Source of the DNA: a virus
Virus record (IMG/VR): IMGVR_UViG_3300045988_092551
Location: 25,210 to 89,209 of that record
Direction: 5' to 3' (one strand)
DNA: 64,000 bases
Numbering within the stretch: position 1 is the first letter of the stretch; every line of letters starts with the position of its first letter. Positions 39,619-64,000 of the stretch are shown here, in pieces. Under the pieces are notes generated by a model. It ran no database searches. It saw nothing but the letters and a program-made list of their open reading frames with translations, and was not told the DNA's origin. The translations under genes were made by a program, and so were the position numbers.

Positions 39619-39619
39619 T

Positions 39620-48030: not shown

Positions 48031-48060
48031 CAATTACAAACCATTTAAATATTTTAGATT

Positions 48061-48246
48061 ATGAAAGAACAGATTTTGAAGAAGATAGGAAAGACGCTTG
48101 TGCGTATTAATGTCACAAATCAGAGTGCAGAGGATGCCTACGATGAACTCGTTAACAGCAGTCCTCGCCTGTTTGGTATGCTTTCCAGTATCTACAGACT
48201 GAATGATGAAGAAGAAAGATTCGCTTGGTCTGCCGGAATCGCCTAA
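48061..48246 (+). CDS. cassette protein, hypothetical
   Basis: 61 aa. Leader AAACCATTTAAAT..AGATTATG. The stop lies in GCCTAAAAT, followed by the hairpin TCCCTACA/TGTAGGGA. Confidence 0.5.
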   Translation: MKEQILKKIGKTLVRINVTNQSAEDAYDELVNSSPRLFGMLSSIYRLNDEEERFAWSAGIA

Positions 48247-48295
48247 AATCTCCCTACACTTGTAGGGAACAATAACCAAAATTATTAGAATTATG

Positions 48296-48774: not shown

Positions 48775-48797
48775 ATAACCAACTAAATTACAGAATT

Positions 48798-48995
48798 ATG
48801 AAGAAGAATATTTTCGTGGCATTGTTTGCCGTAGTGTGTGTTGCATTAGTAGTTGTTTCAGTTACTCTGTACAATTGTCACAGAGCAAACGTGATGCTAA
48901 GAAAGACTGTTATTGCTCAAGCGAACGAGATTTCAGAGCTTAACGGCAGTTACACAGCAGAGGGAGCTACAACGTTCGTAGGTCTCAGAAAGTAG
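48798..48995 (+). CDS. cassette protein with N-terminal transmembrane helix
   Basis: 65 aa. N-terminus MKKNIFVALFAVVCVALVVVSV. Stop lies in TAGCCAAAA, followed by a 9-bp hairpin. Confidence 0.55.
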   Translation: MKKNIFVALFAVVCVALVVVSVTLYNCHRANVMLRKTVIAQANEISELNGSYTAEGATTFVGLRK

Positions 48996-49052
48996 CCAAA
49001 ACAGAGAGGAGTTTCCGCTCCTCTCTTCTATTAACCAAATTATTAGAGAAAT

Positions 49053-49382
49053 ATGGATAGAATATTAAAGCAAGATTTGAGCAAGAATGAGGTTATAGAC
49101 CTCTTGCGTGGAATGGACGCACAGGAAGTTGAGGGAAATTTCTCTGTACGTCGTGTCCTGATCAATACACAGGCGTGTGACGTATTCGGTGGAGAACCTG
49201 AGGACTCTTATCCTCTCATCCCCGGTACGTACATGGCATTGTATTACAAGAGTATTGCCGGAGACCCGTATCCGCTCTTTGAGAGAATATGTGAAAACAT
49301 AATAAATGACGAGAACAAGAGCCAGACTCTCCTGAATGGCGATGGCATTATTCTGATTTTCCTGCTCAACAAGTACGAGTAG
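49053..49382 (+). CDS. cassette protein, hypothetical
   Basis: 109 aa, bounded by the junction motifs. Confidence 0.6.
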   Translation: MDRILKQDLSKNEVIDLLRGMDAQEVEGNFSVRRVLINTQACDVFGGEPEDSYPLIPGTYMALYYKSIAGDPYPLFERICENIINDENKSQTLLNGDGIILIFLLNKYE

Positions 49383-49444
49383 CCAAAAATGTGCTCAGGC
49401 ATTTCCCTGGGCATACTATGTTAAACCATTTAAACGGAAGAATT

Positions 49445-49621
49445 ATGTTAGACAGAAAATCACAAAAGAACTTCGAACGTGCATTGCTCCACGAGATGGA
49501 GAAAATTAAAATTGCTGCACGCCAGTGGCACAACAACAATACTAAGGGCTACAGAGATTTCCGTAGCAAGGAGGCTATCTCAAAGAGTTTCTCTGAGATT
49601 GCAGTATTGTGCATGAGCTGA
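49445..49621 (+). CDS. cassette protein, hypothetical
   Basis: ORF 49391-49621 trimmed to the leader-supported ATG (GGAAGAATTATG). 58 aa. Confidence 0.5.
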   Translation: MLDRKSQKNFERALLHEMEKIKIAARQWHNNNTKGYRDFRSKEAISKSFSEIAVLCMS

Positions 49622-49670
49622 AATGTGCGTGGCGGTTGTCACGCATACTATTCACCAAAAATTATAGATT

Positions 49671-49964
49671 ATGATAGATGAAGAATACAAGAAGAATGTA
49701 GAGTACATGAACTCTGTCATCCTGCCACGATTGCAGGAGACTCAGAGAGAAGTATTGAAAAATCCATCAAGGCTCACTCTTGACATCAGCGTGAGAAACG
49801 ACAACGGCGAAGGGTATATCAGTTCTTTTGCCTGTGTCAGAAATAGCATGGGAGGAGAAATAACGGATACCTGTTATCCACGTTTCATCTGCGCAGACAG
49901 CAAAGAGGAGATGGACGAGCTCTTCAACGAGCTTAAAGAGTTCATCAAGAAGTACTCAGCCTGA
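49671..49964 (+). CDS. cassette protein, hypothetical
   Basis: 97 aa, bounded by the junction motifs. Confidence 0.6.
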   Translation: MIDEEYKKNVEYMNSVILPRLQETQREVLKNPSRLTLDISVRNDNGEGYISSFACVRNSMGGEITDTCYPRFICADSKEEMDELFNELKEFIKKYSA

Positions 49965-50014
49965 AAATTGAGGGAGTTTTATCTCCCTCTCCCACAAACC
50001 AAAAATGTAGAATT

Positions 50015-50284
50015 ATGAGTAAATGGGTACAATTCTATCACAAGATTAATAAGTTTGACCTTGTGAACATGAGATTTACAGAGGATTTCAGTATCGTGGA
50101 AATGACTGGTATGGATTCTATCTTGCCAGTTGACGGCAGATTTAACCTGTCATCCATACGAGCAGAGATACAGAAGAAAATCGAGAGCATGAAGAAAATC
50201 GAGAGTTTCGACCCTTGTGCGTTCTCCATCCTCACCGGCAGTTCTATTCTGTGTGCTTCAGAAAGTCCGGTGTACAATCTCTGA
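50015..50284 (+). CDS. cassette protein, hypothetical
   Basis: 89 aa, bounded by the junction motifs. Confidence 0.55.
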   Translation: MSKWVQFYHKINKFDLVNMRFTEDFSIVEMTGMDSILPVDGRFNLSSIRAEIQKKIESMKKIESFDPCAFSILTGSSILCASESPVYNL

Positions 50285-50342
50285 GCCAGAACTGGGCAGT
50301 ACGATAATGTGCTGCCTGCTATTAACCAAAACAGAATATATT

Positions 50343-50888
50343 ATGAGTAAGAAAAAAGTTGCAGGTCTTGAGAGACCTTACTCTCCTCGCAAATTAGGAG
50401 AGTTATTGTGTGAATACATCGTGCAGGGTGGATTTGAGGAGAGCGCAAAGCTTGATTATTTCTCCCCAAGCGATGATGATGTGACCGAAATTAAGAAAGA
50501 GACTTTTGACGTACTCTCTATTACTGAGTTCGGTTCAAATGAGGGCATTTACACGTCTTTCTACATTGATTATCCTGGAGAAAAGCGCATACGTCTGATG
50601 TGCGCCAAAACTTTGGGCGAGTCAAAGGAAGATTATGTAAATATGCATATAATGGGAGCTAACATTTGCTACTCTTTTATCAAATTCGTAAATAGAAATC
50701 GGGACAGCTTTATATGGTACGGTTACTTTGTCTATTATGCAATAGATAAAGGAGAGAAAAAATATTGCTGGTGTCATTCTATCGAGAGCGTTTATAATAA
50801 CGCTGACGACATTCTACAGAAGCATCCTAATGCGAGAGTATACTACATTGATTGTCAAACTCGGAAGAAGTATGGGTACAACTTCTAG
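50343..50888 (+). CDS. cassette protein, hypothetical
   Basis: ORF 50217-50888 trimmed to the leader-supported ATG. 181 aa. Confidence 0.6.
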   Translation: MSKKKVAGLERPYSPRKLGELLCEYIVQGGFEESAKLDYFSPSDDDVTEIKKETFDVLSITEFGSNEGIYTSFYIDYPGEKRIRLMCAKTLGESKEDYVNMHIMGANICYSFIKFVNRNRDSFIWYGYFVYYAIDKGEKKYCWCHSIESVYNNADDILQKHPNARVYYIDCQTRKKYGYNF

Positions 50889-50947
50889 CCAAAATGCGGG
50901 GCACATCCTGTGTCCTGCTTCTATTATTAACCAATCAAATTAGAATT

Positions 50948-51124
50948 ATGACAGACGGAGACAGAAGGTTCCTTGCCAGGCTCGTAGCGAGCCACAAGGC
51001 AGTTATCAGCGAGGAGTGCGCGAGAAAGAAGCTCGACAAGAGCGAGTATTTCAGACGTACGGCACGAGTGGACAGAAAAGCTCAGGAAATCGAGCGTGCC
51101 TGTATGCGTCCTCGCAAATTCTAG
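50948..51124 (+). CDS. cassette protein, hypothetical
   Basis: Trimmed to the leader-supported ATG. 58 aa, basic and helical. Confidence 0.5.
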   Translation: MTDGDRRFLARLVASHKAVISEECARKKLDKSEYFRRTARVDRKAQEIERACMRPRKF

Positions 51125-51186
51125 CCAACATTCTGTGCGGTCTATCTGCACAGAAACCATGTTTAACCATTTTAATTAGTAGAATT

Positions 51187-51402
51187 ATGGAACGATATTC
51201 ATGTAAGCAGCTGAAATCGCTTGTAGCAAGCGGTGTGGCAAAGGATGTAACCTACGCAGACAGTAGAAGTGAGATTCCTGAGAGTTATACTCAGATCGGG
51301 TATGCAGCAGGAATCTACGGTTGTAACGGAATGTTATTGAAGGGCAAGAGCGGACAGCTATACGCCGTGACAGGCAGAACATCTGCCATCTACATTTTTT
51401 AG
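51187..51402 (+). CDS. cassette protein, hypothetical
   Basis: Trimmed to the leader-supported ATG. 71 aa (MERYSCKQLKSLV...). Confidence 0.55.
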   Translation: MERYSCKQLKSLVASGVAKDVTYADSRSEIPESYTQIGYAAGIYGCNGMLLKGKSGQLYAVTGRTSAIYIF

Positions 51403-51457
51403 CCTAAAATCTCTCCATTCGCTTGGAGAGTACGATTATTAACTAAATATTAGAATT

Positions 51458-51805
51458 ATGACAACGGATTACTACACAGCCGTACACTGGCTAAAAAGTG
51501 CGTTCATCCTCTGTAACGAGATTGTAGAGAATGACGAATCAGTAATTGAAAACATCGAGTATCCAGAGTGGGCAAATGGCGATGAAGAAGAAAGGGACAG
51601 AATCGAGATATTTCAGTGGTTCCTCACTAACATGAGCGAAGAGGATAAGGAATGGATGCAGAAGAATTTCCCTGATCTTATCTTCTCTTACTCTGACAAG
51701 CTTGACTTGTGGATTCTTTGCGTAGATCATTTCGGAACGATGTGGAAGGGAGTCTCAACGACTACCAACTGCGAAAATGCGGCAAAGGCTAGCCAGCTGC
51801 CGTAG
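51458..51805 (+). CDS. cassette protein, hypothetical (acidic)
   Basis: 115 aa, bounded by the junction motifs. Confidence 0.6.
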   Translation: MTTDYYTAVHWLKSAFILCNEIVENDESVIENIEYPEWANGDEEERDRIEIFQWFLTNMSEEDKEWMQKNFPDLIFSYSDKLDLWILCVDHFGTMWKGVSTTTNCENAAKASQLP

Positions 51806-51862
51806 CCAAACCAATCCTCACTCTCACGGGTGGGGATTTCTATTAACCAATACAGATTGAAT

Positions 51863-52018
51863 ATGATTAAAATTGAGATTACTAGAGCCGGTATGGGTGA
51901 GAAATGCCCATATCCGAAGTTCAGCAAATTGCTGGCAAAAGGCTACATAATGTGCCATCGCTGCAAGTATTGTGATGAAATTATCAGCGAGACAGAAATA
52001 ATGTGTAATTATAATTAA
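51863..52018 (+). CDS. small Cys-rich cassette protein
   Basis: Trimmed to the leader-supported ATG. 51 aa with CHRCKYC. Confidence 0.45.
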   Translation: MIKIEITRAGMGEKCPYPKFSKLLAKGYIMCHRCKYCDEIISETEIMCNYN

Positions 52019-52026
52019 TTCGCCTT

Positions 52027-52251
52027 ATGAAAGAGATCTATATTTTATACAAATGTGACAGCTGGCACTCCTCAAATAGTATGGATGTGGTATTTGTAGG
52101 AAGTTCTGTAGAAAAATGCTGTTGGGCGGCGCATTGGAAAGGCGCGACTAACGAGCAGGTAAGACAGCTGAGAGATATTAGGCAGTCGCAGTGTACGAGC
52201 AATCGAGACTACGAGTTTCAGATAGATCACTGGAATATCGACAAGCTCTAA
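52027..52251 (+). CDS. cassette protein, hypothetical
   Basis: 74 aa. Shares a cassette with the previous gene, with no junction between them. Confidence 0.5.
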   Translation: MKEIYILYKCDSWHSSNSMDVVFVGSSVEKCCWAAHWKGATNEQVRQLRDIRQSQCTSNRDYEFQIDHWNIDKL

Positions 52252-52314
52252 GCCAAACATTTCCCAATTCTGTAGCAGGAATTGGGATTTCTATTAACCA
52301 AAGATTACAGAATT

Positions 52315-52554
52315 ATGAGTGACTTAGAGAAAATTTTGAATGACGATTTGCTGAAGTGTGAAATCGTAGAGTCTGTAGAGAATGCAGCAAGACGTGTGGA
52401 TCTTATCAAGTGGACGCACGACGGTTTATTTTCCGTTGCCGACTTACGCAAGGACACCGGAAAGCTTGAAATATCAGAAGTTCCAGAGACGGACGAGCTT
52501 GAAGCGTACAAGTATTTCTACAAAACCTATTGGAGTTTTGTTGTTTCTTCCTAA
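52315..52554 (+). CDS. cassette protein, hypothetical
   Basis: Trimmed to the leader-supported ATG. 79 aa. Confidence 0.55.
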   Translation: MSDLEKILNDDLLKCEIVESVENAARRVDLIKWTHDGLFSVADLRKDTGKLEISEVPETDELEAYKYFYKTYWSFVVSS

Positions 52555-52606
52555 AACTCCCCACGATAATGTGGGGAACCATTATAAACCATTTAAAAAT
52601 AGAATT

Positions 52607-53134
52607 ATGGAAAAGAATATTGTAGGAGAAGTTCTTAATTGCAAGGGTGAGGTTTTGGAGAAGATTGCTGATTATATCGGCACAAAAAGCTTTGCCACGG
52701 TAATCGAGAATCTCTATCGTGAGTGTCTTGAGAAGTTTGATGACGCAGAAGATTTGGAGGAATTTATATCTGATTTTGATGGAAGAAATATCCAGTCCAT
52801 GGCATGGGATTTCACTCTTGAAGTGAACAAGGAGATGAAGAAATATCTCCATATGGATTCTCAGAACATGAATGGTAATTTCGCCAATCTGCGCAACGAT
52901 TACCCTAGACATGTCACCGGTGTATTTTGGGCATCAGACTACGACGGCGACGATTACTATGACTTGTTTCCTCAGACGGTTGCCAGACTCGATGCCGCAG
53001 AAGACAGCGAGCAGGCGAACAAGGACAGAGCGTACCTCGAAGAATGGTATTTCAAAGCCTTCGGTACGTACAACATCAAGTACAATTTCTCGAACGAACT
53101 TGAAGAGATTCACTCTATGATGAAGGAAGCCTAA
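52607..53134 (+). CDS. cassette protein, hypothetical (acidic)
   Basis: ORF 52382-53134 trimmed to the leader-supported ATG. 175 aa. Confidence 0.6.
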   Translation: MEKNIVGEVLNCKGEVLEKIADYIGTKSFATVIENLYRECLEKFDDAEDLEEFISDFDGRNIQSMAWDFTLEVNKEMKKYLHMDSQNMNGNFANLRNDYPRHVTGVFWASDYDGDDYYDLFPQTVARLDAAEDSEQANKDRAYLEEWYFKAFGTYNIKYNFSNELEEIHSMMKEA

Positions 53135-53189
53135 CAATATCCCCTAGCATGGGGATATTCTATGTTAAACCATTTAAATGATATTAGAT

Positions 53190-54011
53190 ATGAGTTACGA
53201 ATTTGCAAAGAAGGAAATCGGTGATTACAGAATCACCATTTACCAGGATGAGGATGCCGAATGCCCTTGCAAAGGATGGGATTTGGTGGGAGTTTACTTC
53301 TGGGACTATTCCGACAACGGATACAATAGAGGTCTGTCTCGTGGTTGCAGCAGCGAAGTTGACGCTAAAAATGCAGAGGATGCTTTGAAAGAGCTTGTCT
53401 GCAAATATGTGTCACAAAAGAAGATTATCGACTACATCAATAGCGAAAATGTCGATAGCTTCCGTATGCGCTATGACAAGAGCGAGCACATGTGGCATCT
53501 TGAGAATCTGTACAATGGCGAGTGGTACTACCACGAAGAGTTCTGTCCGAGCGACTTGAAGAGATTCGACTATAGAGAAGAACTTTGCGATATCCTCGAA
53601 GAGGACGATTTCACGTATCTTCTGCATGACTGCAAGAATATTGCATTCTACGAGTGGTCCTCTACGGGCTACTGCCAGGGAGATTATGTTAGTGGATATG
53701 CCTACTGCGACAAGAAGCGCTTCTCCAAGTATTGTGACACGAACACAAAGAACTGGAGAAAGCGAGCCTTGGACTTATTTGAGGATGAGACTAAGTGCAT
53801 AGGTCTTTGGATGTGGGGCGATGTCAAGGGATTCGTCTTGGAAAAGAAAGTCCACTACAAGAAAGTCTTCACGGAAATCGGTAGAGAGCCGGAGGACGAC
53901 TATGAGTGGGAGCAGATTGATTCCCGCTGGGGAGAGTACTACGAGGACTCTGACGAGCTGATTAAAGACGCTCTCGAAGAGAATGGAATCAAACTAAAAG
54001 AAACAGCCTAA
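53190..54011 (+). CDS. cassette protein, hypothetical
   Basis: 273 aa, rich in Cys, Trp and Tyr. Leader ..TTAGATATG. Confidence 0.6.
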   Translation: MSYEFAKKEIGDYRITIYQDEDAECPCKGWDLVGVYFWDYSDNGYNRGLSRGCSSEVDAKNAEDALKELVCKYVSQKKIIDYINSENVDSFRMRYDKSEHMWHLENLYNGEWYYHEEFCPSDLKRFDYREELCDILEEDDFTYLLHDCKNIAFYEWSSTGYCQGDYVSGYAYCDKKRFSKYCDTNTKNWRKRALDLFEDETKCIGLWMWGDVKGFVLEKKVHYKKVFTEIGREPEDDYEWEQIDSRWGEYYEDSDELIKDALEENGIKLKETA

Positions 54012-54060
54012 CAAGGGGAGCTTGCATGCTCCTCTTCTATTAACCAAATTACAAAGAATT

Positions 54061-54402
54061 ATGAAAGCAAGACTTTATCACGACACAAGAAAGAAGTTCC
54101 GTGACTATATTGACGCCTGGAGTATATACTTTCCTTATCCTAAGTGGATGAGAAAGGAGAATCCTGGAGTGTACGGATGCTTTATCAGCTGCAAGCCGAC
54201 AGAAAGCGGTATGATAAGGTGTATCGTTGACTATGATGAGTTTATTCCGGGTCTTTGCAGCAGACCTTATCTCGGCAAGAGGGTAGACGTGAAGACAACC
54301 CCAAAAGCATTTCAGAAGATTTTCCGTCATCAGGAGAGGTTGTGGAACAACGCAATCACCAAGAATACGGACGAGGCGTGGGAAGCATGGAACAGAGCCT
54401 AA
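54061..54402 (+). CDS. cassette protein, hypothetical
   Basis: Trimmed to the leader-supported ATG. 113 aa. Confidence 0.55.
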   Translation: MKARLYHDTRKKFRDYIDAWSIYFPYPKWMRKENPGVYGCFISCKPTESGMIRCIVDYDEFIPGLCSRPYLGKRVDVKTTPKAFQKIFRHQERLWNNAITKNTDEAWEAWNRA

Positions 54403-54449
54403 AATTGGTAGCCAGTTGGCTACCTACCATTAACTAAATAAATAGAATT

Positions 54450-54710
54450 ATGAAAAAGGGTATAACAATTTCAGAGAGGGGTAACAAAGTTATCTACAGA
54501 CTGGGCAGGCGTATTGTGTGCTACCGAGTGGGCTACAGGGTTTATTTCGGAAAGCCCTCTGACGCTACACATGATACGTTTGATGCCTTGTCCGAGAATA
54601 TTGCACACGAGAGATGCATTGAGATTTGTGAGCGCAGAATATCGGCAGAGACGAAATACAGCAATCCTGTCGCATACAACGCTCACAGAGTGCTGAATGC
54701 ATTAGCCTAA
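54450..54710 (+). CDS. cassette protein, hypothetical
   Basis: 86 aa, bounded by the junction motifs. Confidence 0.55.
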   Translation: MKKGITISERGNKVIYRLGRRIVCYRVGYRVYFGKPSDATHDTFDALSENIAHERCIEICERRISAETKYSNPVAYNAHRVLNALA

Positions 54711-54756
54711 AGATAGCCTCCGGGCTATCACTATAACCAATTAAACAAAGAGAATT

Positions 54757-55017
54757 ATGACACAAGTTAATTTAGGAACTCGCACGGCAAATTTACGTGC
54801 AGCTTATAGCGATTTGAAAGATGGATATACCATTATCGTTGGAAAACTAAAGATGTGGATATACACTTGTAAAAGATGCGGTCCGTCGTATGGCAAGGAT
54901 TATATAGCCTGCGATCATTATGGTGGGCAGTGGGCAATAGGAGTAAATTTCAAGGATTTTACAGACCAAATGCGTAAATTTGGCGAAGGAAAACTTGCTT
55001 ACAACAAAGAGTGGTAG
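54757..55017 (+). CDS. cassette protein, hypothetical
   Basis: 86 aa, bounded by the junction motifs. Confidence 0.55.
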   Translation: MTQVNLGTRTANLRAAYSDLKDGYTIIVGKLKMWIYTCKRCGPSYGKDYIACDHYGGQWAIGVNFKDFTDQMRKFGEGKLAYNKEW

Positions 55018-55075
55018 CCTAAAAACGGAGGGAGTAATCCCTCTGACATTATTAACCAATAAATTATTAAGAATT

Positions 55076-55483
55076 ATGGATAAAAAAGAAATGTGGAAAG
55101 TACTTGGACGTGACGATTACGCACACAAGTCTCAAGAACTGAAAAAAAAGTGCGAGGAACTGGCGAAAGCTATATGCGATAAGCTCATTGAGCTTGACAT
55201 GACAGAAATCTTCATCCCTCGCTGTGGTATTACCTTCAGCGTTATTACCGTGCAAATAAGTTGTGTTAAACGCATTCTTCTTGCGCTAAAGAGTGGCACC
55301 ATTTACTATTTGTTGCAAGAGTTTGGTATATGCGACATACATGCTGGTGACCTTAATGTGAAGGTTGGTCGAGTAGTAGATGCACTTAGTTTTGTTACTC
55401 ACTTGGACGAGATATTACAAGAAATATCGAAGATTGAGGACAAAGAAGTCGCAGGCATCGAAGCTGCTCTCAAGAGACTCTAA
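55076..55483 (+). CDS. cassette protein, hypothetical
   Basis: Trimmed to the leader-supported ATG. 135 aa. Confidence 0.55.
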   Translation: MDKKEMWKVLGRDDYAHKSQELKKKCEELAKAICDKLIELDMTEIFIPRCGITFSVITVQISCVKRILLALKSGTIYYLLQEFGICDIHAGDLNVKVGRVVDALSFVTHLDEILQEISKIEDKEVAGIEAALKRL

Positions 55484-55493
55484 CATCTATCAT

Positions 55494-55535
55494 CCGTGAG
55501 CGACAGGCGCACATCGGGTTCGAGACCCGACACGG
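55494..55535 (+). other. tRNA T-arm/acceptor-like minihelix (not a tRNA)
   Basis: Reads CCGTG-15 nt-TCGGG-TTCGAGA-CCCGA-CACGG. The inner hairpin matches a T-arm (5-bp stem, 7-nt TTCGAGA loop, closing G-C pair). No D or anticodon arms. Confidence 0.4.
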
Positions 55536-55563
55536 AACAATATTAACCAAAATTACAAGAATT

Positions 55564-55794
55564 ATGAAGAGATATTATGTATCAGTCACAGAGACTTTAA
55601 ACAAGATTGTCAGCGTCGATGCCAAGAGTGAGAAAGATGCGCTTGAACAAGTACAAACAGCCTACAATGATTCTGTCATCGTTCTCGATTCCAGCAATTT
55701 TGTAAACGAAGAAATAGAGCTTGACTCTAATCAGGAGTTATATGCTGACAACGAAAAAGAGCAGGGAGGAGATGTTTATCAGCACATCGACTAG
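55564..55794 (+). CDS. small DpnD/PcfM-like protein (paralog A), upstream of the RT
   Basis: 76 aa. MKRYYVSVTETLNKIVSVDAKSEKDALEQV aligns with MRRKYRVGIVETSNGFVDVEASSEEEARKKA of ORF 58442-58612. Confidence 0.55.
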   Translation: MKRYYVSVTETLNKIVSVDAKSEKDALEQVQTAYNDSVIVLDSSNFVNEEIELDSNQELYADNEKEQGGDVYQHID

Positions 55795-55842
55795 CCAAAT
55801 GGGGAGAGCAATCTCCCTACCAATAACCAAAACACAAGAATT

Positions 55843-57108
55843 ATGAATGAAGACAGAATCCTAGAGATGTTCTTCGAGAAAGCCAGATGGCAGTATGCCA
55901 TTGAAAAAGGCTTGTTCAAGGACATGAACAAAGCAGTAATGTATCAGCTTACAACGCCGGAGGCTCGTCTGGCTATGTATCAGAGGATCAAGAGCGGCAA
56001 TTACAAGATAATGCCGCCACACACAGCGAAGATTCCGAAAGACAACGGAGATTTCCGTACGGTCTATGTGAATGAACCTGTAGACAGAATCCTACTGAGC
56101 ATAGCAAACGACCTCTTGTTTGAGCTGATGCCAGAGATGGTGCATCCGCGCTGTACGTCATACCAGAAAGGTATCGGCTGCGGTCGTGTGGTGCAAGATG
56201 TGTCTCGGATAATATACTCAGCAGAGGGAAAAATCATCGGATGGAAAGGTGACTTCTCCAAGTACTTCGATTCCGTGCCTATTCGGTTCATCGACTGGGC
56301 ATTTGACAAGGTAGAGGAGAAGTACGGAAAGTCTGCGCTGATAGACGTCATTCGTGACTACTATCACACGGATATCTATTTCGATGAAGACAACAACCTC
56401 TGTGAGAAGTATCAGTCCCTCAAGCAGGGATGCTCTGTTGCTGCATGGCTGGCTGATGTCATTCTCTATCATCTTGACGACAAGCTATCTAAGCTTAACG
56501 GATATTACGTCCGCTATTCAGATGATACGCTGTTTGTCGGTGAAGACTATGAGAAAGCCATGGATATCATGAAGAGCGAGCTGGAGATGATGCAGATGAA
56601 GCTCAATCCGAAGAAGGTTGAGTATCTTGACGCTAATCACTGGTTCAAGTTCCTCGGATATTCCATCAAGGGTCACAATATCTCTCTGTCGTCCACTCGT
56701 ATCAAGACTTTCCAAAAGGAGATTGAGAAGAGGACGATAAAGAAACGTGACACCACGATGACGAAAGCCATCAATGCAGTAAACAGGTATCTCTACAAGG
56801 GGTACTGCGATTATTCCTGGGCTACTCAGGTTCTTCCGGTCATAAACGTGAAAGAGGACATCGACAAGCTCAACGCATTTGTCATGGACTGCATCCGTGC
56901 GGTCAAGACAGGCAAGAGAAAGGTCGGTGGTCTCGGATACGTGAAGACTCAGGCTGTAGGTTGCATAGACCGAGGTCGTGGCAGGAACGTGAAAGCCAAC
57001 AGGGGTAAGACAGAGAGCGAAATCAAGGGGTATCTATCAATCGGTTGCGCACAGAATGCCTTGCGAACGAGCAGGGCAGCGTACAACACATTGGTGAATA
57101 CTCTGTAG
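55843..57108 (+). CDS. reverse transcriptase (prokaryotic, unclassified lineage)
   Basis: 421 aa. RT motifs: AKIPKDNGDFRTVYV, DRILLSIAN, SYQKGIG, GDFSKYFDSVP, LKQGCSVAAWLADVIL, YVRYSDDTLFVG (YSDD at 56515-56526), KLNPKKV, FKFLGYSI. Confidence 0.85.
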   Translation: MNEDRILEMFFEKARWQYAIEKGLFKDMNKAVMYQLTTPEARLAMYQRIKSGNYKIMPPHTAKIPKDNGDFRTVYVNEPVDRILLSIANDLLFELMPEMVHPRCTSYQKGIGCGRVVQDVSRIIYSAEGKIIGWKGDFSKYFDSVPIRFIDWAFDKVEEKYGKSALIDVIRDYYHTDIYFDEDNNLCEKYQSLKQGCSVAAWLADVILYHLDDKLSKLNGYYVRYSDDTLFVGEDYEKAMDIMKSELEMMQMKLNPKKVEYLDANHWFKFLGYSIKGHNISLSSTRIKTFQKEIEKRTIKKRDTTMTKAINAVNRYLYKGYCDYSWATQVLPVINVKEDIDKLNAFVMDCIRAVKTGKRKVGGLGYVKTQAVGCIDRGRGRNVKANRGKTESEIKGYLSIGCAQNALRTSRAAYNTLVNTL

Positions 57109-58415
57109 ATGAGCATCCTAGCGCAATGATTTGCCGGAATGAAGACACAAGGTTTTAAATATCCCGGTTGCGGAGTGCATGGACCTATCTCTTAATAAGA
57201 GATGGTCCTACGCTCGTCCTAAACCGGACATTATCGAACTTATAAAGCCATGCGCAGTATCTTCTGACCGGCATACTCTGTAACCGAGCACACGGACGTG
57301 GGAGAAGGACGGGCGAAGATTCAGGCGATGCCTCGTATAACATCATCTGAACATCCGACAATGCATGGATGTTCGTATGACGAACAAGGCGTAGCTCATC
57401 AACGAAGTACAGAAATGTGCCAGTCCGTATGACTTCCACTGGTGGCGCACACTACCAATCCCTGACGGATGGCTGAAGTTTATGCAACAGGTCTCTTAAC
57501 CAGAGTAGTTGATCCTGAGCGTCTTCGTATACTACTACGACCTCTGGATCATCTATTCTGGCGAATCCTGTGTCAAATCAGAAACATAAAGTATTGTGCC
57601 GAGCCATCGGTCAGTGAATTACCTTAGCACGAGGGTAGTCTTCAGAGGAGAGTTAATTCACGAGTGATGTTGTGCTCGCCGGCTAATGCTGGGAATCCCC
57701 AGCGTCATCCGGCGGGTTAACATCCCTCGAATCAAGCTGTTATAGCTACGTGTCACGCTCTCAGATAAAGACAACGTTATTGCCAAACGAGGTACACGAG
57801 GAGGTATCGGTTTATTCAACCCGCCTAGTATCAACGCGATATGTCTGGTAATACCAGCAATCTCGCGTATCGGCAAGCGGGTTAAATCATCAGCCTATAG
57901 TAAGGCAACAGACCTATGAGTGTACCTACAACAACCAAAGTGAATTGCATCACGACTTATCAAGAGTATGAGGTTTAATGTCACGTGAGTGGAATACCTG
58001 CGACGGCCGATATCTCCGCCGTCGCAGGTATCCAATCCACGGGACCTAATCGTGAACATATATCCATGCAACATAATACATGAGATAAGTCATGCGCATT
58101 GCAGCGATGTCTGGCAAGTTCTGAGTGTTCATCGAGCGTTTCATTGATTCTGAAGCCAAGGATGTGGAAGCATTCGCTTCCTGGAGGTTGGCTTCATAAC
58201 AATGCCACGCCCTTAATCGAAAACTTAAAGCAATGCAACGTATCAGGTTGAGTCAGACTAGGTTATTGCGAGCCGAAATGGTGTGCAAGGAGAATAGATT
58301 GTACAATACGGTATCAATCATCCTGAAGATCCAGGTGGTTACCTGGATCTGTCAGGACTTAGATACAGTATTTATCAAGACCTTATAGTTACGCAACAGA
58401 TTCTCTGAGCGCACT
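57109..58415 (+). ncRNA. candidate RT-associated structured noncoding RNA (~1.3 kb)
   Basis: No junction separates the RT stop from this region. There is no credible ORF: stops of all three kinds occur in every frame I read. It is G+C-richer by eye. Nested helices lie at 57181-57208, 57349-57374, 57677-57714, 57818-57883, 57991-58033, 58151-58196 and 58321-58357. Confidence 0.55.
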
Positions 58416-58441
58416 CCTATTAACCAATACTTTTTAGAATT

Positions 58442-58612
58442 ATGAGAAGAAAATATCGTGTAGGAATTGTAGAAACGTCGAACGGATTTGTGGACGTTGA
58501 GGCAAGTAGCGAAGAGGAAGCTAGAAAAAAGGCGTATGATGCATGGGCAAATGGTTATGCGGTTATGTGCGGAGATATAGATTGCAAGACCGCAGAAGTA
58601 TGTCCAGGCTAA
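58442..58612 (+). CDS. small DpnD/PcfM-like protein (paralog B; below ORF-track cutoff)
   Basis: Hand translation gives MRRKYRVGIVETSNGFVDVEASSEEEARKKAYDAWANGYAVMCGDIDCKTAEVCPG. Leader-supported ATG. The stop lies in GGCTAAAAA, followed by a hairpin. Confidence 0.5.
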   Translation: MRRKYRVGIVETSNGFVDVEASSEEEARKKAYDAWANGYAVMCGDIDCKTAEVCPG

Positions 58613-58660
58613 AAAATCCCACGCAATAGTGGGATTCTTATTAACCAATATTTTGAGAAT

Positions 58661-59113
58661 ATGACATACGACGAGATTATCAATGAAGTTGAGAATGGTG
58701 CTAAGTTCACCATCAACTTCCAGAAGAGAACATGCAGAGTGAACGGCAAGGTAGTAATGTCCGAGGAGGACAAGCCGAAGGACACGCCTTACCTTACACC
58801 TGAGGTAGTGTTTGTAGGCATCGAGCAGAGATATGCAGCGTACAAGCACTCTGTGCCGTCTGAGCGCTCCGAATCACATCGCCACTACTACTTCAAGGCT
58901 TTACCTGAGAAAGAACTCTCAGACGAAGATATGATGTACGGAGAGCGACGTGAAGTGGCGAGGTGCAAGCTGGAGCTGTACGTTCTTATGCAGCTACTCA
59001 GAGGCAACCTCTGGTGGGACAACTCATGGGGAACATGGTTCTGGTGTTCCAAGAACGACAAGGACCTGATTATCCTCAGAGACTGGATTGAGCCAAACAA
59101 GGGTGGGGCGTAA
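58661..59113 (+). CDS. cassette protein, hypothetical
   Basis: 150 aa with leader ..GAGAATATG. Confidence 0.6.
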   Translation: MTYDEIINEVENGAKFTINFQKRTCRVNGKVVMSEEDKPKDTPYLTPEVVFVGIEQRYAAYKHSVPSERSESHRHYYFKALPEKELSDEDMMYGERREVARCKLELYVLMQLLRGNLWWDNSWGTWFWCSKNDKDLIILRDWIEPNKGGA

Positions 59114-59170
59114 GCCTCATCCACTAGAGTTAAATAAATTTTTAGTAACCAATTTAAAATAATTAGAATT

Positions 59171-60208
59171 ATGAAGCAGATTGTAACAATCACTGGCGAG
59201 AACTTGAACATCGTAACTAACAATGTAGAGGCTACAGCAGCTACCAGTAAGAAGACCAAGGCGCAGATGCGTCTCGAAGCTCTGAAGGCAGCAGGCGTTG
59301 ACGTTAGCAAGTACTTCCCTCTCGGTGATGACCAGCTTATCAAGATCGAGAATGGTGCAGCTGTTCCTGTTGATATGGACGATTCGACCATCGATGCGGT
59401 AGGCAAGAAGATTGTCGAGGGTGGATACGTAAGTAACTGGAAGCTGTTCCGTCGTTGGGTTATGTCTCAAATGTTTCACATGTTGCGTAACATGAAGGAG
59501 GACGGCAAGTCATTCAACGAGGTTTTACAGAAGAAGGGCTACGAGTACCAGTGGCGCATGTTGGAGAACGAGCTGTATGCTCAGATGAAGATGTGTGACC
59601 ACAAGGACTACGAGAATCTCAAGGCGAGAAATCGCTGGTTCAACGGCTGCGTAGCACACGATATGACTATTGACTATATTAACAAGCTTCGCAGCTACAT
59701 TGACGACAAGTGCATCTACACTACCAAGAAAGATAAGGATGGAAACAAGAAGAAGACATACAAGCATACCTGCAAGGGTAATCCTTATATCCGTCTTCAG
59801 AACGAGGACATTTTTGTCGCAGACTTGGAGAGAAAGGTCTATACTCCTCTCCGTAACCTTGCCAACAAAATGGGTGCTGCAACGACCTACAAGGAGCTCT
59901 ACGATGCCGTTCGCGAGTTCAACAAGAACCGTAAGCATCTCGCTTGGGAGACTAAGATGTCTGATGCATTCATCAATGCCTATAAGGGTTCTGGTTCCTA
60001 CTATACGATGAGAAACCTCATTATGTTCCACGGAGCAAGATTCATGAAGGGCGGACGAAAGATGTCAGAAGCCAACTCGTTGAAGGAGCTTGAGTCCAAA
60101 GCCAAACTCTACGATGAAGAGGGTTGGAGAATGCTTGGTGTTCTCAAGCAGCTCATCAGCGAGTCAAACATTGACATCCAGGGCAAGATTAACGAGTGGA
60201 AGAAGTAA
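59171..60208 (+). CDS. cassette protein, hypothetical (largest non-enzymatic cassette)
   Basis: 345 aa with a leader-supported ATG. Confidence 0.65.
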   Translation: MKQIVTITGENLNIVTNNVEATAATSKKTKAQMRLEALKAAGVDVSKYFPLGDDQLIKIENGAAVPVDMDDSTIDAVGKKIVEGGYVSNWKLFRRWVMSQMFHMLRNMKEDGKSFNEVLQKKGYEYQWRMLENELYAQMKMCDHKDYENLKARNRWFNGCVAHDMTIDYINKLRSYIDDKCIYTTKKDKDGNKKKTYKHTCKGNPYIRLQNEDIFVADLERKVYTPLRNLANKMGAATTYKELYDAVREFNKNRKHLAWETKMSDAFINAYKGSGSYYTMRNLIMFHGARFMKGGRKMSEANSLKELESKAKLYDEEGWRMLGVLKQLISESNIDIQGKINEWKK

Positions 60209-60214
60209 TCTCTA

Positions 60215-60375
60215 GCAAGATGTAAGGTTCGCCGCCTGAAGAATGGTGGCTCGGCAGCAATTCACAAGAGCTTCTGCAACGAGAGGATCTCCTCCAGTTA
60301 CTACTGGAGATAGTCCTTCGAGCTAAAGCTCTCCAGATCAAACTACTAAAGTAAGGCGCAAGCCGGGAGCCATTC
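60215..60375 (+). ncRNA. candidate small structured RNA (~160 nt) occupying a cassette slot
   Basis: No ORF. Closing helix GAATGG..CTC..GGC (60241-60255) pairs with GCC..GAG..CCATTC (60362-60375). Inner hairpins are CTCCAG-TTACTA-CTGGAG (60292-60309) and GAGC-TAAA-GCTC (60320-60331). TAGCCAAAA plus a junction hairpin follow. Confidence 0.45.
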
Positions 60376-60438
60376 TAGCCAAAAGTCGGTTACTGATTCG
60401 GTAACCGATTCAATGTCTAACCAATAAAATGAAGAATT

Positions 60439-60831
60439 ATGAAAGAGATTAATGTAGACACAAGAAAGTATATTAAGGCTCCTGTTGACGGAAAGAATGT
60501 TGTTGAAGAATCACTTCTAGACGCCATCTTTGACGATTCGCAATATCTTAGCAATAAGTTCTCCATGGGATTTATCGGTGGTGTACCTACAATGATTGAG
60601 TATAACGGGAACTATTTATCTATCAAGAAGTTACGTCCGTGTAGTACATCAGAGTGGGGCAGAGAGATTGTTAAACGACTAACAGGCGAGTCCAAAAATA
60701 ACATATATTGTTACGAGACAAAGCAGTATCTCGACGAACGCCAGGCAGAGCCTTTAATCTATACATTCTCTCTGAGTACAGATTACCTTACAGTAAGATT
60801 TCACTACAATGTAAAAGTAGATGAAGATTAG
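60439..60831 (+). CDS. cassette protein, hypothetical
   Basis: 130 aa, bounded by the junction motifs. Confidence 0.6.
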   Translation: MKEINVDTRKYIKAPVDGKNVVEESLLDAIFDDSQYLSNKFSMGFIGGVPTMIEYNGNYLSIKKLRPCSTSEWGREIVKRLTGESKNNIYCYETKQYLDERQAEPLIYTFSLSTDYLTVRFHYNVKVDED

Positions 60832-60896
60832 CCAAACATGTCAGTCGTTAACAGCGGCTGACTCCTTATCATAACTAGATTTTGTTTAAATGGTTC

Positions 60897-60929
60897 AAAC
60901 CGGTCTGTCGTGAGACACGCCGGTTTTTT
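60897..60929 (+). terminator. terminator-like hairpin with T6
   Basis: AAACCGG...CCGGTTT with TTTTTT. It is the only junction in the array with a long U tract. Confidence 0.45.
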
Positions 60930-60963
60930 GTTCCCAAAGTTTAACCAATTAAAATTTTGAATT

Positions 60964-61398
60964 ATGGTAACAGCAAGAAGAGGTACAAAAATGCTCAAAG
61001 CTTCTGACATTATGAAGAGAAAGGGCATTGTCCAGAAACAGATGGACATGAACAAGTTCAATGAGGTTATAGAGAATTTCTTTATGACCCACGAGCCTAA
61101 GGATACGATTCTCCTTACGCCGAAGAGATTCATCGAGATGGATAACCCGCCAGAGGGTGACTTCATAGACTATCTCGATATCAGCGTGTGGGAGAAGAAA
61201 TGCGATGATCCTGATGACCCGTTCGACTTCATCGACTATCAGTTTATGAAGAAAAACGGGATGCTCCGACCTATCCTTATGGTGAACGAGCCTTTCATCG
61301 GCAATGCTGCCGGGTGGCTGAGAGATTTTTGTGGATTCACTGTGAAGAGCAGAACACGAAAGAAGAAGAAGGAATATATCGTGTCTCTGCCGGTGTAA
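60964..61398 (+). CDS. cassette protein, hypothetical
   Basis: 144 aa with a leader-supported ATG. Confidence 0.6.
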   Translation: MVTARRGTKMLKASDIMKRKGIVQKQMDMNKFNEVIENFFMTHEPKDTILLTPKRFIEMDNPPEGDFIDYLDISVWEKKCDDPDDPFDFIDYQFMKKNGMLRPILMVNEPFIGNAAGWLRDFCGFTVKSRTRKKKKEYIVSLPV

Positions 61399-61464
61399 AG
61401 CCGAACAAGGCGTGGAACATTATTGTTTCACGCTCCCAGTATTAACCAATTAAAATTTATGAAT

Positions 61465-62058
61465 ATGACTGATATTGAAAGAGTAAAGAGATTCGCATCC
61501 GAGAATGATTACCCAGGTGAGACATTGGACACAATAAACTGCTTCCGCAGACACAGTAAGACTCCAAAGGAAGACCTCGACAGCCTGGACAAGGCAACCG
61601 ATGAGGACTGGCTAGGTCTTATCGATGAGTACGAGGGCAATGGAATCAACTGGAAGGGAGAGTTCTCGGACGTTAAAGGAAACAGCGTAACACTTGGCGA
61701 CAAGGTTATGTGGAACAATCCAGATCCTGATGATTTCGATAAGTGGTACGAGAATTTCAAGATATGCACCGTAGATGATATATCAGGAGACCGAATATCA
61801 CTCAAGGACGAGGACGGAGATACGTTCGATGTAACCGATGATGAATGTACTTTAGCTCGAAAGCTTGATTACAAGCTCTATGAGGACGAGAAGTATCACT
61901 ATGGAGTGTGTGGGATGCTCCAGGATATCGAGAATGCCCGCACAATGACGAGCTATATCCACGATGACGACCTCAGATGGAAGCTTGATGCTGCGTGCAG
62001 ATGGTTCAAGGAACACATTGAGGCTGAGATTGCCAATCACATCGTAGAGAACCAGTAA
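61465..62058 (+). CDS. cassette protein, hypothetical (acidic)
   Basis: ORF 61423-62058 trimmed to the GAATATG start (61459 is also possible). 197 aa. Confidence 0.55.
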   Translation: MTDIERVKRFASENDYPGETLDTINCFRRHSKTPKEDLDSLDKATDEDWLGLIDEYEGNGINWKGEFSDVKGNSVTLGDKVMWNNPDPDDFDKWYENFKICTVDDISGDRISLKDEDGDTFDVTDDECTLARKLDYKLYEDEKYHYGVCGMLQDIENARTMTSYIHDDDLRWKLDAACRWFKEHIEAEIANHIVENQ

Positions 62059-62114
62059 GCCAAACAAGCCTGCCGGGAACGGTGGGCATCAAGTCAAACC
62101 AAAATATTAAGATT

Positions 62115-62636
62115 ATGGATAGAAAAGTATTGAAAGACAAGATTGATGAGTTGCGTTCAACAGCAAAGATGGAACTTGCATGCACCATCCGTGAGATAAT
62201 GAGAGAGCACAATGTGCAGAAGAAAGAACTTGGCAGGCCTGTAGTTGTCAACAATAGCAGTCTTGTAGATATCGTAGAGGTAGGTAGTGGTGATACCGAC
62301 ATCCCGGTTTTCGTCATAAATGTCGGTGTTGGCTACTACAAAGAGCCTCACAAGGTAAGTGCATTGGACGATAGCGTATCGGTCGAGCTACTCGCTGATA
62401 TTGCGACCGGGTTGAACAACGAACTGAGTGGCTACGTCAGCACTTATGTGGCAAAGTACAGATTCCTCTATGAAGACGGAACTACTGCTGACATGGATGA
62501 GCCTTATGTATTCCTTGCAGAATCAGAAAGAGATGCCAAAGATAAGGCAGATGACTATGCAGAGGTATGGAATGACTGGAATGAAGATACGATAGAACTC
62601 GTATCAGTCGAGAAACAGACTTCTTCGGAAAGTTAA
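62115..62636 (+). CDS. cassette protein, hypothetical
   Basis: Trimmed to the leader-supported ATG. 173 aa. Confidence 0.55.
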   Translation: MDRKVLKDKIDELRSTAKMELACTIREIMREHNVQKKELGRPVVVNNSSLVDIVEVGSGDTDIPVFVINVGVGYYKEPHKVSALDDSVSVELLADIATGLNNELSGYVSTYVAKYRFLYEDGTTADMDEPYVFLAESERDAKDKADDYAEVWNDWNEDTIELVSVEKQTSSES

Positions 62637-62663
62637 TTTAGCGTTAAAAACGGCAAAGGTGAT

Positions 62664-62679
62664 GGTTTATATTATAAAC
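62664..62679. promoter_or_regulatory. palindrome GGTTTATATTATAAAC (operator-like, copy 2)
   Basis: Identical to 46393-46408. Sits 7 nt upstream of the integrase -7 box. Confidence 0.5.
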
Positions 62680-62685
62680 TTTTAG

Positions 62686-62693
62686 TATCTTTG
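62686..62693 (+). promoter_or_regulatory. -7 box TATCTTTG for the integrase
   Basis: TAnnTTTG, 27 nt before ATG 62720. Same TAGTATCTTTGC string as at 46725. Confidence 0.5.
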
Positions 62694-62719
62694 CCACTAG
62701 TAACCAAAATATTAGAATT

Positions 62720-63763
62720 ATGACAGAAGAATTAAGAATCAAGACAAGAGACTGGGAACGCCTGCTGAGTCCTGTTCAGCAGGAGAAGTATAAGCTCGCT
62801 ATCAAGCAGGGCTGGTTCGCCAACTATCACGACAACGCATGGAGGCATAACACCTTCTATGGAGCTTATATCTGGAAGAATCCGAAGTTCATAAAGGTAG
62901 TAAGGATGTTCGAGGAGCTGTTGGGGCACAAGCCATTGTGGGAAGACATCACTGACGACAACCTCCGTGACCTCTTTGAGAAGATCAAGGAGAACTATGC
63001 TCCCAATTCCGCAAAGACCGTATGCGCCACCATCAAGGCTGTGATACGTGAGAACGATGCTACGAAGGAGATTAACAGCCCTACGTTCGGAAAGATACTC
63101 AGAACGAAGGCAGTTCCAGTACAGTCCGTCTATCTCTCGGATGAGGAGATAGATAGAATCATCAATTACAATCCGAGGGGACAGACTAGGAGATATGTCC
63201 AGCGCATGTTCCTCATGGAATGCCTCTGTGGAGCACGCTACAGCGATTGTCAGAGAATAACTCCTGAGAACATCGATGATACCGGGCATTTCCTTGTGTA
63301 TGTGGCACAGAAGACAAAGACGGAGGTAAGGGTTCCTCTCCACAAGAAGCTCCGTCCGTTCCTTGTATGCGGCACTGGAGTCGAGCCTCTTCCTGGTGAA
63401 ATCAGCGAGATGACCTTCAACCGAACTCTTCGTGACATCTGCCGTGATTGTGGAATAGACGAGAACACGAAGGTGTTCCATGCAGGTAAGGAAGAGACCG
63501 GAAAGAAGTACCTCTTCATCTCTTCACACACCGGCAGACGTTCGTTCGCCACGAATCTCTCCAAGAAAGGCGTACCGTTGGAGCAGATTGCCGTTATGAT
63601 GGGGCATACTAGTAACGGTAAGCCTAATATCCAGATGACGCAACGGTACATCGTTGGTAAGACCGAGATTGACAGCAATACCCTGAGACTGTTCGGTGTA
63701 TACGATAAGGATCTGTATGATGGTTTAGATGAGGACCAAGCTAAAACTGGAGATGGCCATTAG
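62720..63763 (+). CDS. int: tyrosine recombinase / phage integrase
   Basis: 347 aa. GARYSD (Arg box), SSHTGRRSFAT (HxxR), MMGH and QRY (catalytic Tyr). Confidence 0.8.
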   Translation: MTEELRIKTRDWERLLSPVQQEKYKLAIKQGWFANYHDNAWRHNTFYGAYIWKNPKFIKVVRMFEELLGHKPLWEDITDDNLRDLFEKIKENYAPNSAKTVCATIKAVIRENDATKEINSPTFGKILRTKAVPVQSVYLSDEEIDRIINYNPRGQTRRYVQRMFLMECLCGARYSDCQRITPENIDDTGHFLVYVAQKTKTEVRVPLHKKLRPFLVCGTGVEPLPGEISEMTFNRTLRDICRDCGIDENTKVFHAGKEETGKKYLFISSHTGRRSFATNLSKKGVPLEQIAVMMGHTSNGKPNIQMTQRYIVGKTEIDSNTLRLFGVYDKDLYDGLDEDQAKTGDGH

Positions 63764-63802
63764 CTATCTCCTGCTATTGTTTAACCAATTTAAATAACGA
63801 AT

Positions 63803-64000
63803 ATGGCAGAAGATAATAAAAAAGAACTCATCAATGAGTGCCAGGAAAAGTATGCCGAGCTTATAAAGCAGACGGTCATAAAGGCACTCACAGGCGAGAT
63901 TTCTACGAACTCCGCTATGGTAAATGAATTGGAGTCACTTAACTTCCAATACCACGAGGAGATGGACGAGTACGACGATACGGCGCCTGACCTTAACCCG
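63803..64000 (+). CDS. cassette protein, 5' partial at window edge
   Basis: Leader GTTTAACCAATTTAAATAACGAATATG. The frame is open to the window end (MAEDNKKELINECQEKY...). Confidence 0.5.
   Translation, partial: MAEDNKKELINECQEKYAELIKQTVIKALTGEISTNSAMVNELESLNFQYHEEMDEYDDTAPDLNP

Follow-up and report, generated by a model that had tools for sequence, protein, structure and literature searches.

A probable complete UG27 reverse transcriptase system with nine noncoding RNA units in a temperate Segatella/Prevotella phage

Introduction

Reverse transcriptases (RTs) of the UG27 group were described by Mestre et al. in 2022, mainly from human-gut phages of Bacteroidetes and Firmicutes (PMC9226505). 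They were accompanied by two clusters of genes without recognizable domains, a putative structured noncoding RNA (ncRNA) was reported in the intergenic region after the RT, and the group was not enriched in defence islands (PMC9226505). According to a preprint dated 24 September 2026, UG27 loci carry arrays of ~150-nt units, 82,314 of them in 14,118 loci, in which the motifs UUYA and AUCNNNNNNNUANAG bracket a central hairpin (bioRxiv 10.64898/2026.09.22.753630). Five UG27 systems placed in E. coli gave RT-dependent single-stranded DNA (ssDNA) hairpins of 50-100 nt, not concatemers; synthesis started at AUC and ended after UUYA, and the RT and two accessory proteins, sORF and bORF, were all needed for the cDNA, to which the preprint assigns no biological role yet (bioRxiv 10.64898/2026.09.22.753630). 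Here we analyse 64,000 nt of the viral record IMGVR_UViG_3300045988_092551 from IMG/VR (positions 25,210 to 89,209 of that record; hereafter the window). The region at 55.8-60.4 kb of the window is very likely a complete UG27 system of a temperate tailed Segatella/Prevotella phage.

Results

The reverse transcriptase belongs to the UG27 group

The gene on which the identification turns is the following.

55843-57108, + strand: UG27 reverse transcriptase, 421 aa; PADLOC RT_UG27 and Pfam RVT_1; YSDD at nt 56515-56526

The original prediction, made from the window's sequence, had recognized an RT in this ORF by its motifs, and rightly so: the 421-aa product matches Pfam RVT_1 (E 3e-18), its catalytic YSDD is intact at residues 225-228, and the QGCSVAAW motif lies at residue 195, as noted. 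Placement of the RT by hidden Markov model, which had been proposed as a check, gave RT_UG27 as the clear best match among the PADLOC profiles (E 1e-227, 754 bits), with residues 3-421 aligned to positions 2-420 of a 420-position profile. The next-best profiles were UG26 (9.5e-33), Drt9 (1e-28) and the best retron (1e-11), and there was a weaker match to UG17 too. Judged by these profile scores, and without a phylogenetic tree, the RT is a member of the UG27 group, a class 2 UG/Abi RT. It is 68% identical to the UG27 RT of Alistipes putredinis DSM 17216 (locus L028), which is among the five experimentally tested systems (bioRxiv 10.64898/2026.09.22.753630). The further suggestion of a new RT-ncRNA module did not survive this assignment, as the RT is a full-length UG27 enzyme and the system was described in 2022.

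Two conserved accessory genes follow the array

Loci with relatives of the RT were taken from species-representative genomes (31 loci) and from IMG/VR (80 loci). About 85 of the loci are close relatives, with RT proteins 97-99% identical, and 26 more distant ones, with RT identities of 58-84%, make up a diverse set. Only two ORFs of the window recur beside the RT in the diverse loci.

58661-59113, + strand: sORF, small UG27 accessory protein, 150 aa; synteny in 22 of 26 loci; 51% identity with its A. putredinis counterpart
59171-60208, + strand: bORF, large UG27 accessory protein, 345 aa; immediate 3' neighbour of sORF in 22 of 26 loci; 38% identity with its A. putredinis counterpart

The four diverse loci without the pair include short or truncated contigs. 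Where the pair is present the order is RT, gap, sORF, bORF in 20 of the 22 loci, with a gap of 0.06-1.5 kb that usually measures 0.9-1.5 kb; the remaining two have sORF and bORF ahead of the RT. Neither protein has a Pfam or PHROG match. AlphaFold2 models reached a pLDDT of 78.8 for bORF and 68.3 for sORF, and a Foldseek comparison of both models with the PDB gave no significant fold (best E 0.74 for bORF and 4.0 for sORF). This lack of known domains agrees with the published accounts (PMC9226505; bioRxiv 10.64898/2026.09.22.753630).

Some variation was seen within bORF. The A. putredinis-type protein (L028:11181-12224) starts with a CPxCG zinc-ribbon-like motif that the window bORF does not have, and the N-terminal 26 residues of the latter are modelled at low confidence. 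The name that NCBI gives the A. putredinis bORF, 'ubiquitin carboxyl-hydrolase', found no support in our domain searches.

The RT and a noncoding stretch share one cassette

The genes around the RT are separated by a recurrent junction, one copy of which stands directly before the RT.

55814-55842, + strand: promoter-like junction before the RT, consisting of CCAATAACCAA, N12 and GAATTATG; AGCCAAA and a hairpin at the end of the upstream gene precede it; the promoter role is putative

A motif census upheld the junction pattern that had been proposed for this locus. The + strand of the window has 22 copies of TAACCAA followed 9-14 nt on by (A)GAATTATG, and the - strand two; 20 of the 22 lie within 48-64 kb, mostly preceded by AGCC(A/T)AAA and a hairpin. 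No copy of the junction was found between 55824 and 58421, and the RT is not separated from the noncoding stretch by any terminator-like site. The two therefore form one cassette, so that the original claim of an RT and a structured ncRNA together in one phage-borne cassette holds.

The small genes of 48000-64000 on the + strand are nearly all self-contained cassettes of the same kind, in which AGCC(A/T)AAA, a hairpin, (TAT)TAACCAA, 9-14 nt and (A)GAATTATG follow one another; examples of TAACCAA sites on this strand are 55824, 58421, 58642, 59146 and 60418. The TAACCAA signal looks like a phage-specific promoter or translation-start signal.

The 1,307 bases at 57109-58415 hold no conserved ORF. 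As had been claimed, none is credible: the longest stop-free stretch is 88 aa, and there is no protein-level counterpart in the diverse loci beyond residual nucleotide similarity. The stretch had also been described as richer in G+C than everything around it. A slight excess over the window is there (46.7% in the array against 43.7%), but the RT gene is at 47.2% and the flanks are at 42-46%.

The noncoding stretch is an array of UG27 units

The 1.3-kb noncoding stretch is an array of eight units of 134-159 nt separated by spacers of 14-23 nt, and a ninth unit stands alone after bORF. Each unit is built, from the outside in, on a basal stem (P1, P2) that leads through an asymmetric internal loop to a long central hairpin; UUYA lies on the 5' side of the loop and AUC-N7-UANAG on the 3' side. 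In the following list the position of each motif is given together with the segment from UUYA to AUC, which was taken as the predicted template, the z-score of the minimum free energy (MFE) relative to dinucleotide shuffles, and the score of R2, a covariance model described in the next section.

57132-57273, + strand: ncRNA unit 1; UUUA 57154, AUC-N7-UAAAG 57233; predicted template 57154-57235, 82 nt; z -4.7; R2 90.5 bits
57297-57440, + strand: ncRNA unit 2; UUCA 57320, AUC-N7-UACAG 57398; predicted template 81 nt; z -3.9; R2 34.5 bits, E 7e-7, outside training
57459-57617, + strand: ncRNA unit 3; UUUA 57479, AUC-N7-UAAAG 57577; predicted template 101 nt; z -5.7; R2 23.9 bits, E 5.5e-4, outside training
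57638-57773, + strand: ncRNA unit 4; UUCA 57657, AUC-N7-UAUAG 57731; predicted template 77 nt; z -6.2; R2 104 bits
57790-57927, + strand: ncRNA unit 5; UUCA 57815, AUC-N7-UAUAG 57886; predicted template 74 nt; z -5.4; R2 95 bits; central hairpin 57818-57883
57951-58094, + strand: ncRNA unit 6; UUUA 57974, AUC-N7-UAUAU 58049 (one mismatch); predicted template 78 nt; z -7.0; holds the 16-bp stem noted earlier
58109-58258, + strand: ncRNA unit 7; UUCA 58140, AUC-N7-UAAAG 58216; predicted template 79 nt; z -3.2; R2 90 bits
58281-58414, + strand: ncRNA unit 8; UUGUA ~58299, AUC-N7-UAUAG 58374; predicted template 78 nt; z -5.6; R2 111 bits
~60240-60373, + strand: ncRNA unit 9, solitary, after bORF; UUCA 60261, AUC-N7-UAAAG 60337; predicted template 79 nt; R2 24.7 bits, E 3.5e-4, outside training

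As DNA, ATC-N7-TANAG is exact at 57233, 57398, 57577, 57731, 57886, 58216 and 58374 and has one mismatch at 58049, giving a spacing of 154-180 nt within the array; the other 62.7 kb of the window hold four exact copies on the + strand (Poisson P ~5e-12). Across all nine units this 3' motif is exact in eight, the mismatch being that of unit 6, and UUYA lies ~20 nt into eight of the nine, 5' of the central hairpin, with UUGUA in unit 8. All of units 1-8 fold better than their dinucleotide shuffles (z -3.2 to -7.0). Only 4 nt separate the end of unit 8 from the next junction motif. Unit 9 is followed by AGCCAAAA and a terminator hairpin (60386-60408), then by TAACCAA (60418), and a unit in the same position after bORF is also present in five other loci (L028, L016, L024, L027 and L008).

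The helices named in the original prediction are real, and correspond to the central hairpins of units 5, 6 and 7. The ~160-nt periodicity was overlooked there, as were the existing UG27 literature, both true accessory genes and the ninth unit, which lies beyond the interval it covered. An RNA several-fold longer than those of retrons or DRT systems had been described, whereas the stretch consists of eight tandem units of ordinary size. Two analyses failed to bring out the units: a global MFE fold of the whole 1.3 kb is uninformative because long-range pairs mask them, and plain MAFFT of the eight units aligned the 3' motif alone, so that a model-guided alignment was needed.

In most units, of the window and of the family, the internal loop between P1 and P2 has a conserved (C)AAG on its 5' side facing UGAG on its 3' side, as in unit 6, where 57961-57966 faces 58083-58087. 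This could be a kink-turn-like or protein-binding loop.

Covariation supports the unit structure across the family

A first covariance model, built from 40 distinct orthologues of unit 6, found units 8, 7, 5, 4 and 1. Model R2 was then based on six window units plus one minus-strand echo of the unit 6 hairpin, which was carried in with the alignment. Run unfiltered on the whole window, R2 returned the nine units and two minus-strand echoes and nothing more; three of the nine (units 2, 9 and 3) were outside the training set. The minus-strand matches, at 57976-58044 and 58302-58371, are reverse complements of the palindromic hairpins of units 6 and 8, and are echoes, not separate elements.

The covariance model of the noncoding region had been suggested as a check, and with it homologous loci proved to share the units, with strong covariation. 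Among 16 diverse UG27 loci, R2 gave 80 matches at E <= 0.01, all on the strand of the RT and all intergenic, flanking the three UG27 genes. Most are directly 3' of the RT and some after bORF, with one upstream of sORF (L007); A. putredinis has eight. A motif scan of the diverse loci found the same periodicity, for example seven sites at 9393-10405 of L028 and one after its bORF.

For the 40 unit 6 orthologues, 97.8% of cells are in standard pairs, versus 29-42% when the pairing is slid by 1-3 columns. Fifteen pairs have changed on both sides, nearly all in the central hairpin, and P1, P2 and the motifs are near-invariant. The other units give the same picture in the alignments made here, with 1-15 covarying pairs per unit and 0.5-2.9% non-canonical cells. 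A family-wide alignment of 76 distinct rows (75 units and one minus-strand echo, from the window and 15 diverse loci) has 90.3% of its cells paired, compared with 34-37% in slid controls, and each of its 31 pairs covaries; it leans towards structure because it was fitted to the model.

Predicted cDNA products

In the mechanism proposed here the RT and the eight units would be transcribed together, since neither junction nor terminator lies between them. Each unit folds into the basal stem P1/P2, the asymmetric loop and the variable central hairpin, as energy and covariation show. A complex of RT, sORF and bORF would start DNA at AUC, copy the central hairpin and stop after UUYA, a step proposed because of the experiments on five homologous systems, with A. 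putredinis compared directly. This would yield nine ssDNA hairpins, each of a different sequence and 74-101 nt long, all starting 5'-GAT. Eight of the predicted cDNAs end in GAA or AAA and the unit 8 product, with its UUGUA template, in CAA; the predicted folds of all nine are imperfect DNA hairpins with energies from -11 to -26 kcal/mol. A search of the rest of the window, host genomes lying outside it, found nothing that matched the predicted templates over more than 12 nt. A role in cDNA synthesis, which the original prediction had suggested among others, appears correct, judged by homology to the tested UG27 systems.

It may be asked if the locus instead works like a retron, yielding branched multicopy single-stranded DNA (msDNA), or like DRT2 or DRT9, yielding long concatemeric or homopolymeric cDNA from one template, in abortive-infection defence. 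UG27 shares its class 2 UG/Abi clade with DRT2 and DRT9, the RT has the weaker PADLOC matches to Drt9 (1e-28), UG17 and retron RTs, and its template would be a hairpin in an adjacent ncRNA, as in retrons. However, those profile scores are ~200 orders of magnitude weaker than that of UG27, the RNA lies downstream in nine tandem copies with UG27 motifs, and no retron or DRT ncRNA family matched in the Rfam scan. Moreover, the tested UG27 products are 50-100 nt long and not concatemers (bioRxiv 10.64898/2026.09.22.753630), and UG27 is not enriched in defence islands (PMC9226505). A retron- or DRT-like mode of action is therefore improbable here.

The original prediction had set aside both retrons and group II introns, and the RT profile scores and the empty Rfam scan bear this out. 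A retron was rejected on the best retron RT profile (1e-11, versus 1e-227 for UG27) and on an RNA that is downstream and repeated, and a group II intron on the absence of any Rfam match at E <= 1 in 54000-60000.

Evolution of the array among close relatives

Among the ~85 close relatives, median nucleotide identity to the window is 95.3% for the RT, 88.5% for bORF, 85.9% for sORF and 85.7% for the array. The RT is thus the unusually conserved part, the core of a mosaic neighbourhood. A description of the array as hypervariable was considered and tempered, since at 85.7% it is no more divergent than sORF (85.9%) or several neighbour genes. Within the units, per-site diversity is 0.20 in the templated hairpin versus 0.08 in the scaffold and 3' motif block, a difference of ~2.5x. 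The hairpin is thus the fastest-evolving part and yet stays paired, which suggests that selection acts on the sequence or the shape of the cDNA.

Units are also lost. Units 6 and 7 are missing from some close relatives, unit 7 from ~20. One relative carries a hybrid unit (L067:9288-9431) whose 5' scaffold comes from unit 1 and whose hairpin comes from unit 6, with the join at the conserved GGTTTAAT motif; the units between the joined parts are gone, and units 1-5 are otherwise missing. This hybrid suggests that units are deleted when conserved motifs of two different units recombine.

Such losses, an array that is less conserved than the RT (85.7% vs 95.3% nt) and a foreign gene between the array and sORF could also be taken to mean that the locus is a decaying, non-functional UG27 remnant with a drifting array. 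Against this, all three ORFs are intact and YSDD is present, the scaffold and motifs are kept, and the hairpin changes are compensatory (97.8% paired and 15 covarying pairs in unit 6). A conserved scaffold together with compensatory hairpin changes points to selection, not drift, and a remnant is quite improbable, a shade more so than a retron- or DRT-like system.

Two DpnD/PcfM-like genes are passengers

Two small ORFs bracket the RT and the array, at 55564-55794 and at the following position.

58442-58612, + strand: DpnD/PcfM-like passenger gene, 56 aa; PF14207; lies between the array and sORF; has a junction and a terminator hairpin of its own

Both match the Pfam family DpnD-PcfM, PF14207 (E 1e-11 for 55564-55794 and 4e-7 for 58442-58612), and the two proteins align weakly with each other (E 0.005). 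They had been described as related to one another and as bracketing the RT and its RNA. The relation stands, but neither gene is conserved with the RT in diverse UG27 loci. In the co-occurrence analysis that had been proposed, they were not syntenic with the RT in other loci: the gene at 58442-58612 is present in two of the ~85 close relatives (L053 and L104) and in no diverse locus, and the ORF at 55564-55794 is in one diverse locus. By this distribution, the DpnD/PcfM-like genes are not part of the UG27 system, and the one at 58442-58612 is an inserted passenger.

A rival reading takes the locus for an RT-ncRNA module of an unknown kind, in which a single ~1.3-kb structured RNA acts with two flanking small proteins. 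The small ORFs do share a Pfam domain, a scan of 54-60 kb against Rfam (release 15; E <= 1), also proposed as a check, found no family, and megablast of the locus against a GenBank phage collection found no nucleotide match. Nevertheless, the empty Rfam scan reflects a missing model, because release 15 holds none for UG27; the RT is full-length UG27, the RNA consists of repeated units of published architecture, and the conserved partners are sORF and bORF, not the small ORFs, which are not syntenic with the RT elsewhere. An unknown module is thus very improbable. Least probable of all, to the point of being negligible, is a diversity-generating retroelement (DGR) with the noncoding region as template repeat: no other kind of RT system is as common in Bacteroidota phages as the DGR, but this RT is of another type, an accessory variability gene is missing and, as the templates match nothing longer than 12 nt elsewhere in the window, there is no pair of template and variable repeats, so that the original prediction was right to exclude one.

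Phage context

The window belongs to a temperate tailed phage, with structural, replication and integrase genes present.

10816-14835: tail fibre
32636-33817: major head protein (major capsid protein)
35504-37147: large terminase
37129-38835: portal
44321-45883: primase
62720-63763: integrase

The relatives closest to it are IMG/VR contigs, 47-91 kb long, and genomes of Segatella copri, one of them a complete chromosome. Beside the tail-fibre gene are two giant ORFs on the - strand (15187-22383 and 23006-29311; 2,398 and 2,101 aa), and a phosphoadenosine phosphosulfate reductase-like gene (39521-40588, + strand; phrog_424, E 4e-31) lies just 3' of the terminase and portal genes.

Discussion

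Based on the above, the locus shows each defining UG27 feature that can be tested in silico, the cDNA product itself being a prediction. Several points weigh against its being a complete UG27 system. The array and sORF have an extra gene between them, an unusual arrangement in this family, and unit 6 has UAUAU for UANAG and unit 8 UUGUA for UUYA. The pseudoknot reported for the 149- and 167-nt classes was not recovered in a column-pair covariation scan, which covered well-occupied columns, not loop inserts, and revealed no pairs in addition to the nested helices. In addition, cDNA production, its boundaries and co-transcription are carried over by homology from A. putredinis, at identities of 68% for the RT, 51% for sORF and 38% for bORF.

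UG27 is among the few RT systems owned by phages and not by their hosts, and its product is unusual, since a single RNA array gives rise to many short ssDNA hairpins that differ from one another. The value of this locus is that it is a clean and complete example, with nine units and three intact genes in a temperate Segatella phage that has ~85 close relatives. Comparison of these relatives shows where selection acts, on a fixed scaffold and a variable but paired hairpin, and this pattern is the most useful lead that the locus offers on the role of the hairpin cDNAs.

One possible reading, which we hold tentatively and consider more doubtful than probable, takes the array for a library of structured ssDNA hairpins that evolves, with its templated segment under diversifying selection. 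Its basis is the hairpin diversity, the compensatory pairing, and the swapping, fusion or loss of whole units among ~85 phages. If this is true, the cDNA hairpins could serve as decoys or aptamers directed at variable host proteins, such as defence sensors; alternatively, they could be a programmable specificity element of the temperate phage. Such a role would be new for an RT system.

In its layout the array can be compared to CRISPR arrays, as conserved scaffold alternates with fast-evolving segments and units are gained and lost. The analogy stops there: the two are not homologous, each variable segment here is a self-complementary hairpin, and the output is DNA and not a guide RNA. The variable part also has no match longer than 12 nt in the window, and none to phage or host DNA according to the preprint (bioRxiv 10.64898/2026.09.22.753630).

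Nearer to the locus are DRT2 (UG2) and DRT9 (UG28), which share its RT class and its use of a dedicated structured ncRNA as scaffold and template. Those systems reportedly have one ncRNA and long products, either rolling-circle concatemers that create a gene or poly-dA (bioRxiv 10.64898/2026.09.22.753630). They are host-encoded defences, whereas UG27 is phage-encoded and makes many short discrete hairpins.

With retrons the locus would share the copying by the RT of a hairpin segment of an adjacent ncRNA to short, abundant ssDNA, with a flanking scaffold setting start and stop. However, a retron has a single ncRNA upstream of the RT, is primed from the 2'-OH of a conserved G to give branched RNA-DNA, and is coupled to toxin effectors in chromosomal defence. 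The present locus is carried by a phage and combines a UG-class RT with nine downstream units and two unrelated accessory proteins.

Compared with other UG27 systems, the locus differs in the DpnD/PcfM-like gene between array and sORF, in the bORF of its clade, which has no N-terminal CPxCG, in two units with one-base motif variants, and in the pseudoknot, not recovered here. Its likenesses to them are the RT profile, sORF and bORF, and the order RT, array, sORF, bORF, the commonest in our sample; ~150-nt units with UUYA and AUC-N7-UANAG around a variable hairpin, with an extra unit after bORF; carriage by a temperate Bacteroidota phage; and gain and loss of units among relatives. Taken as a whole, the locus is a representative of the known UG27 system in an ordinary form, and not a new kind of system.

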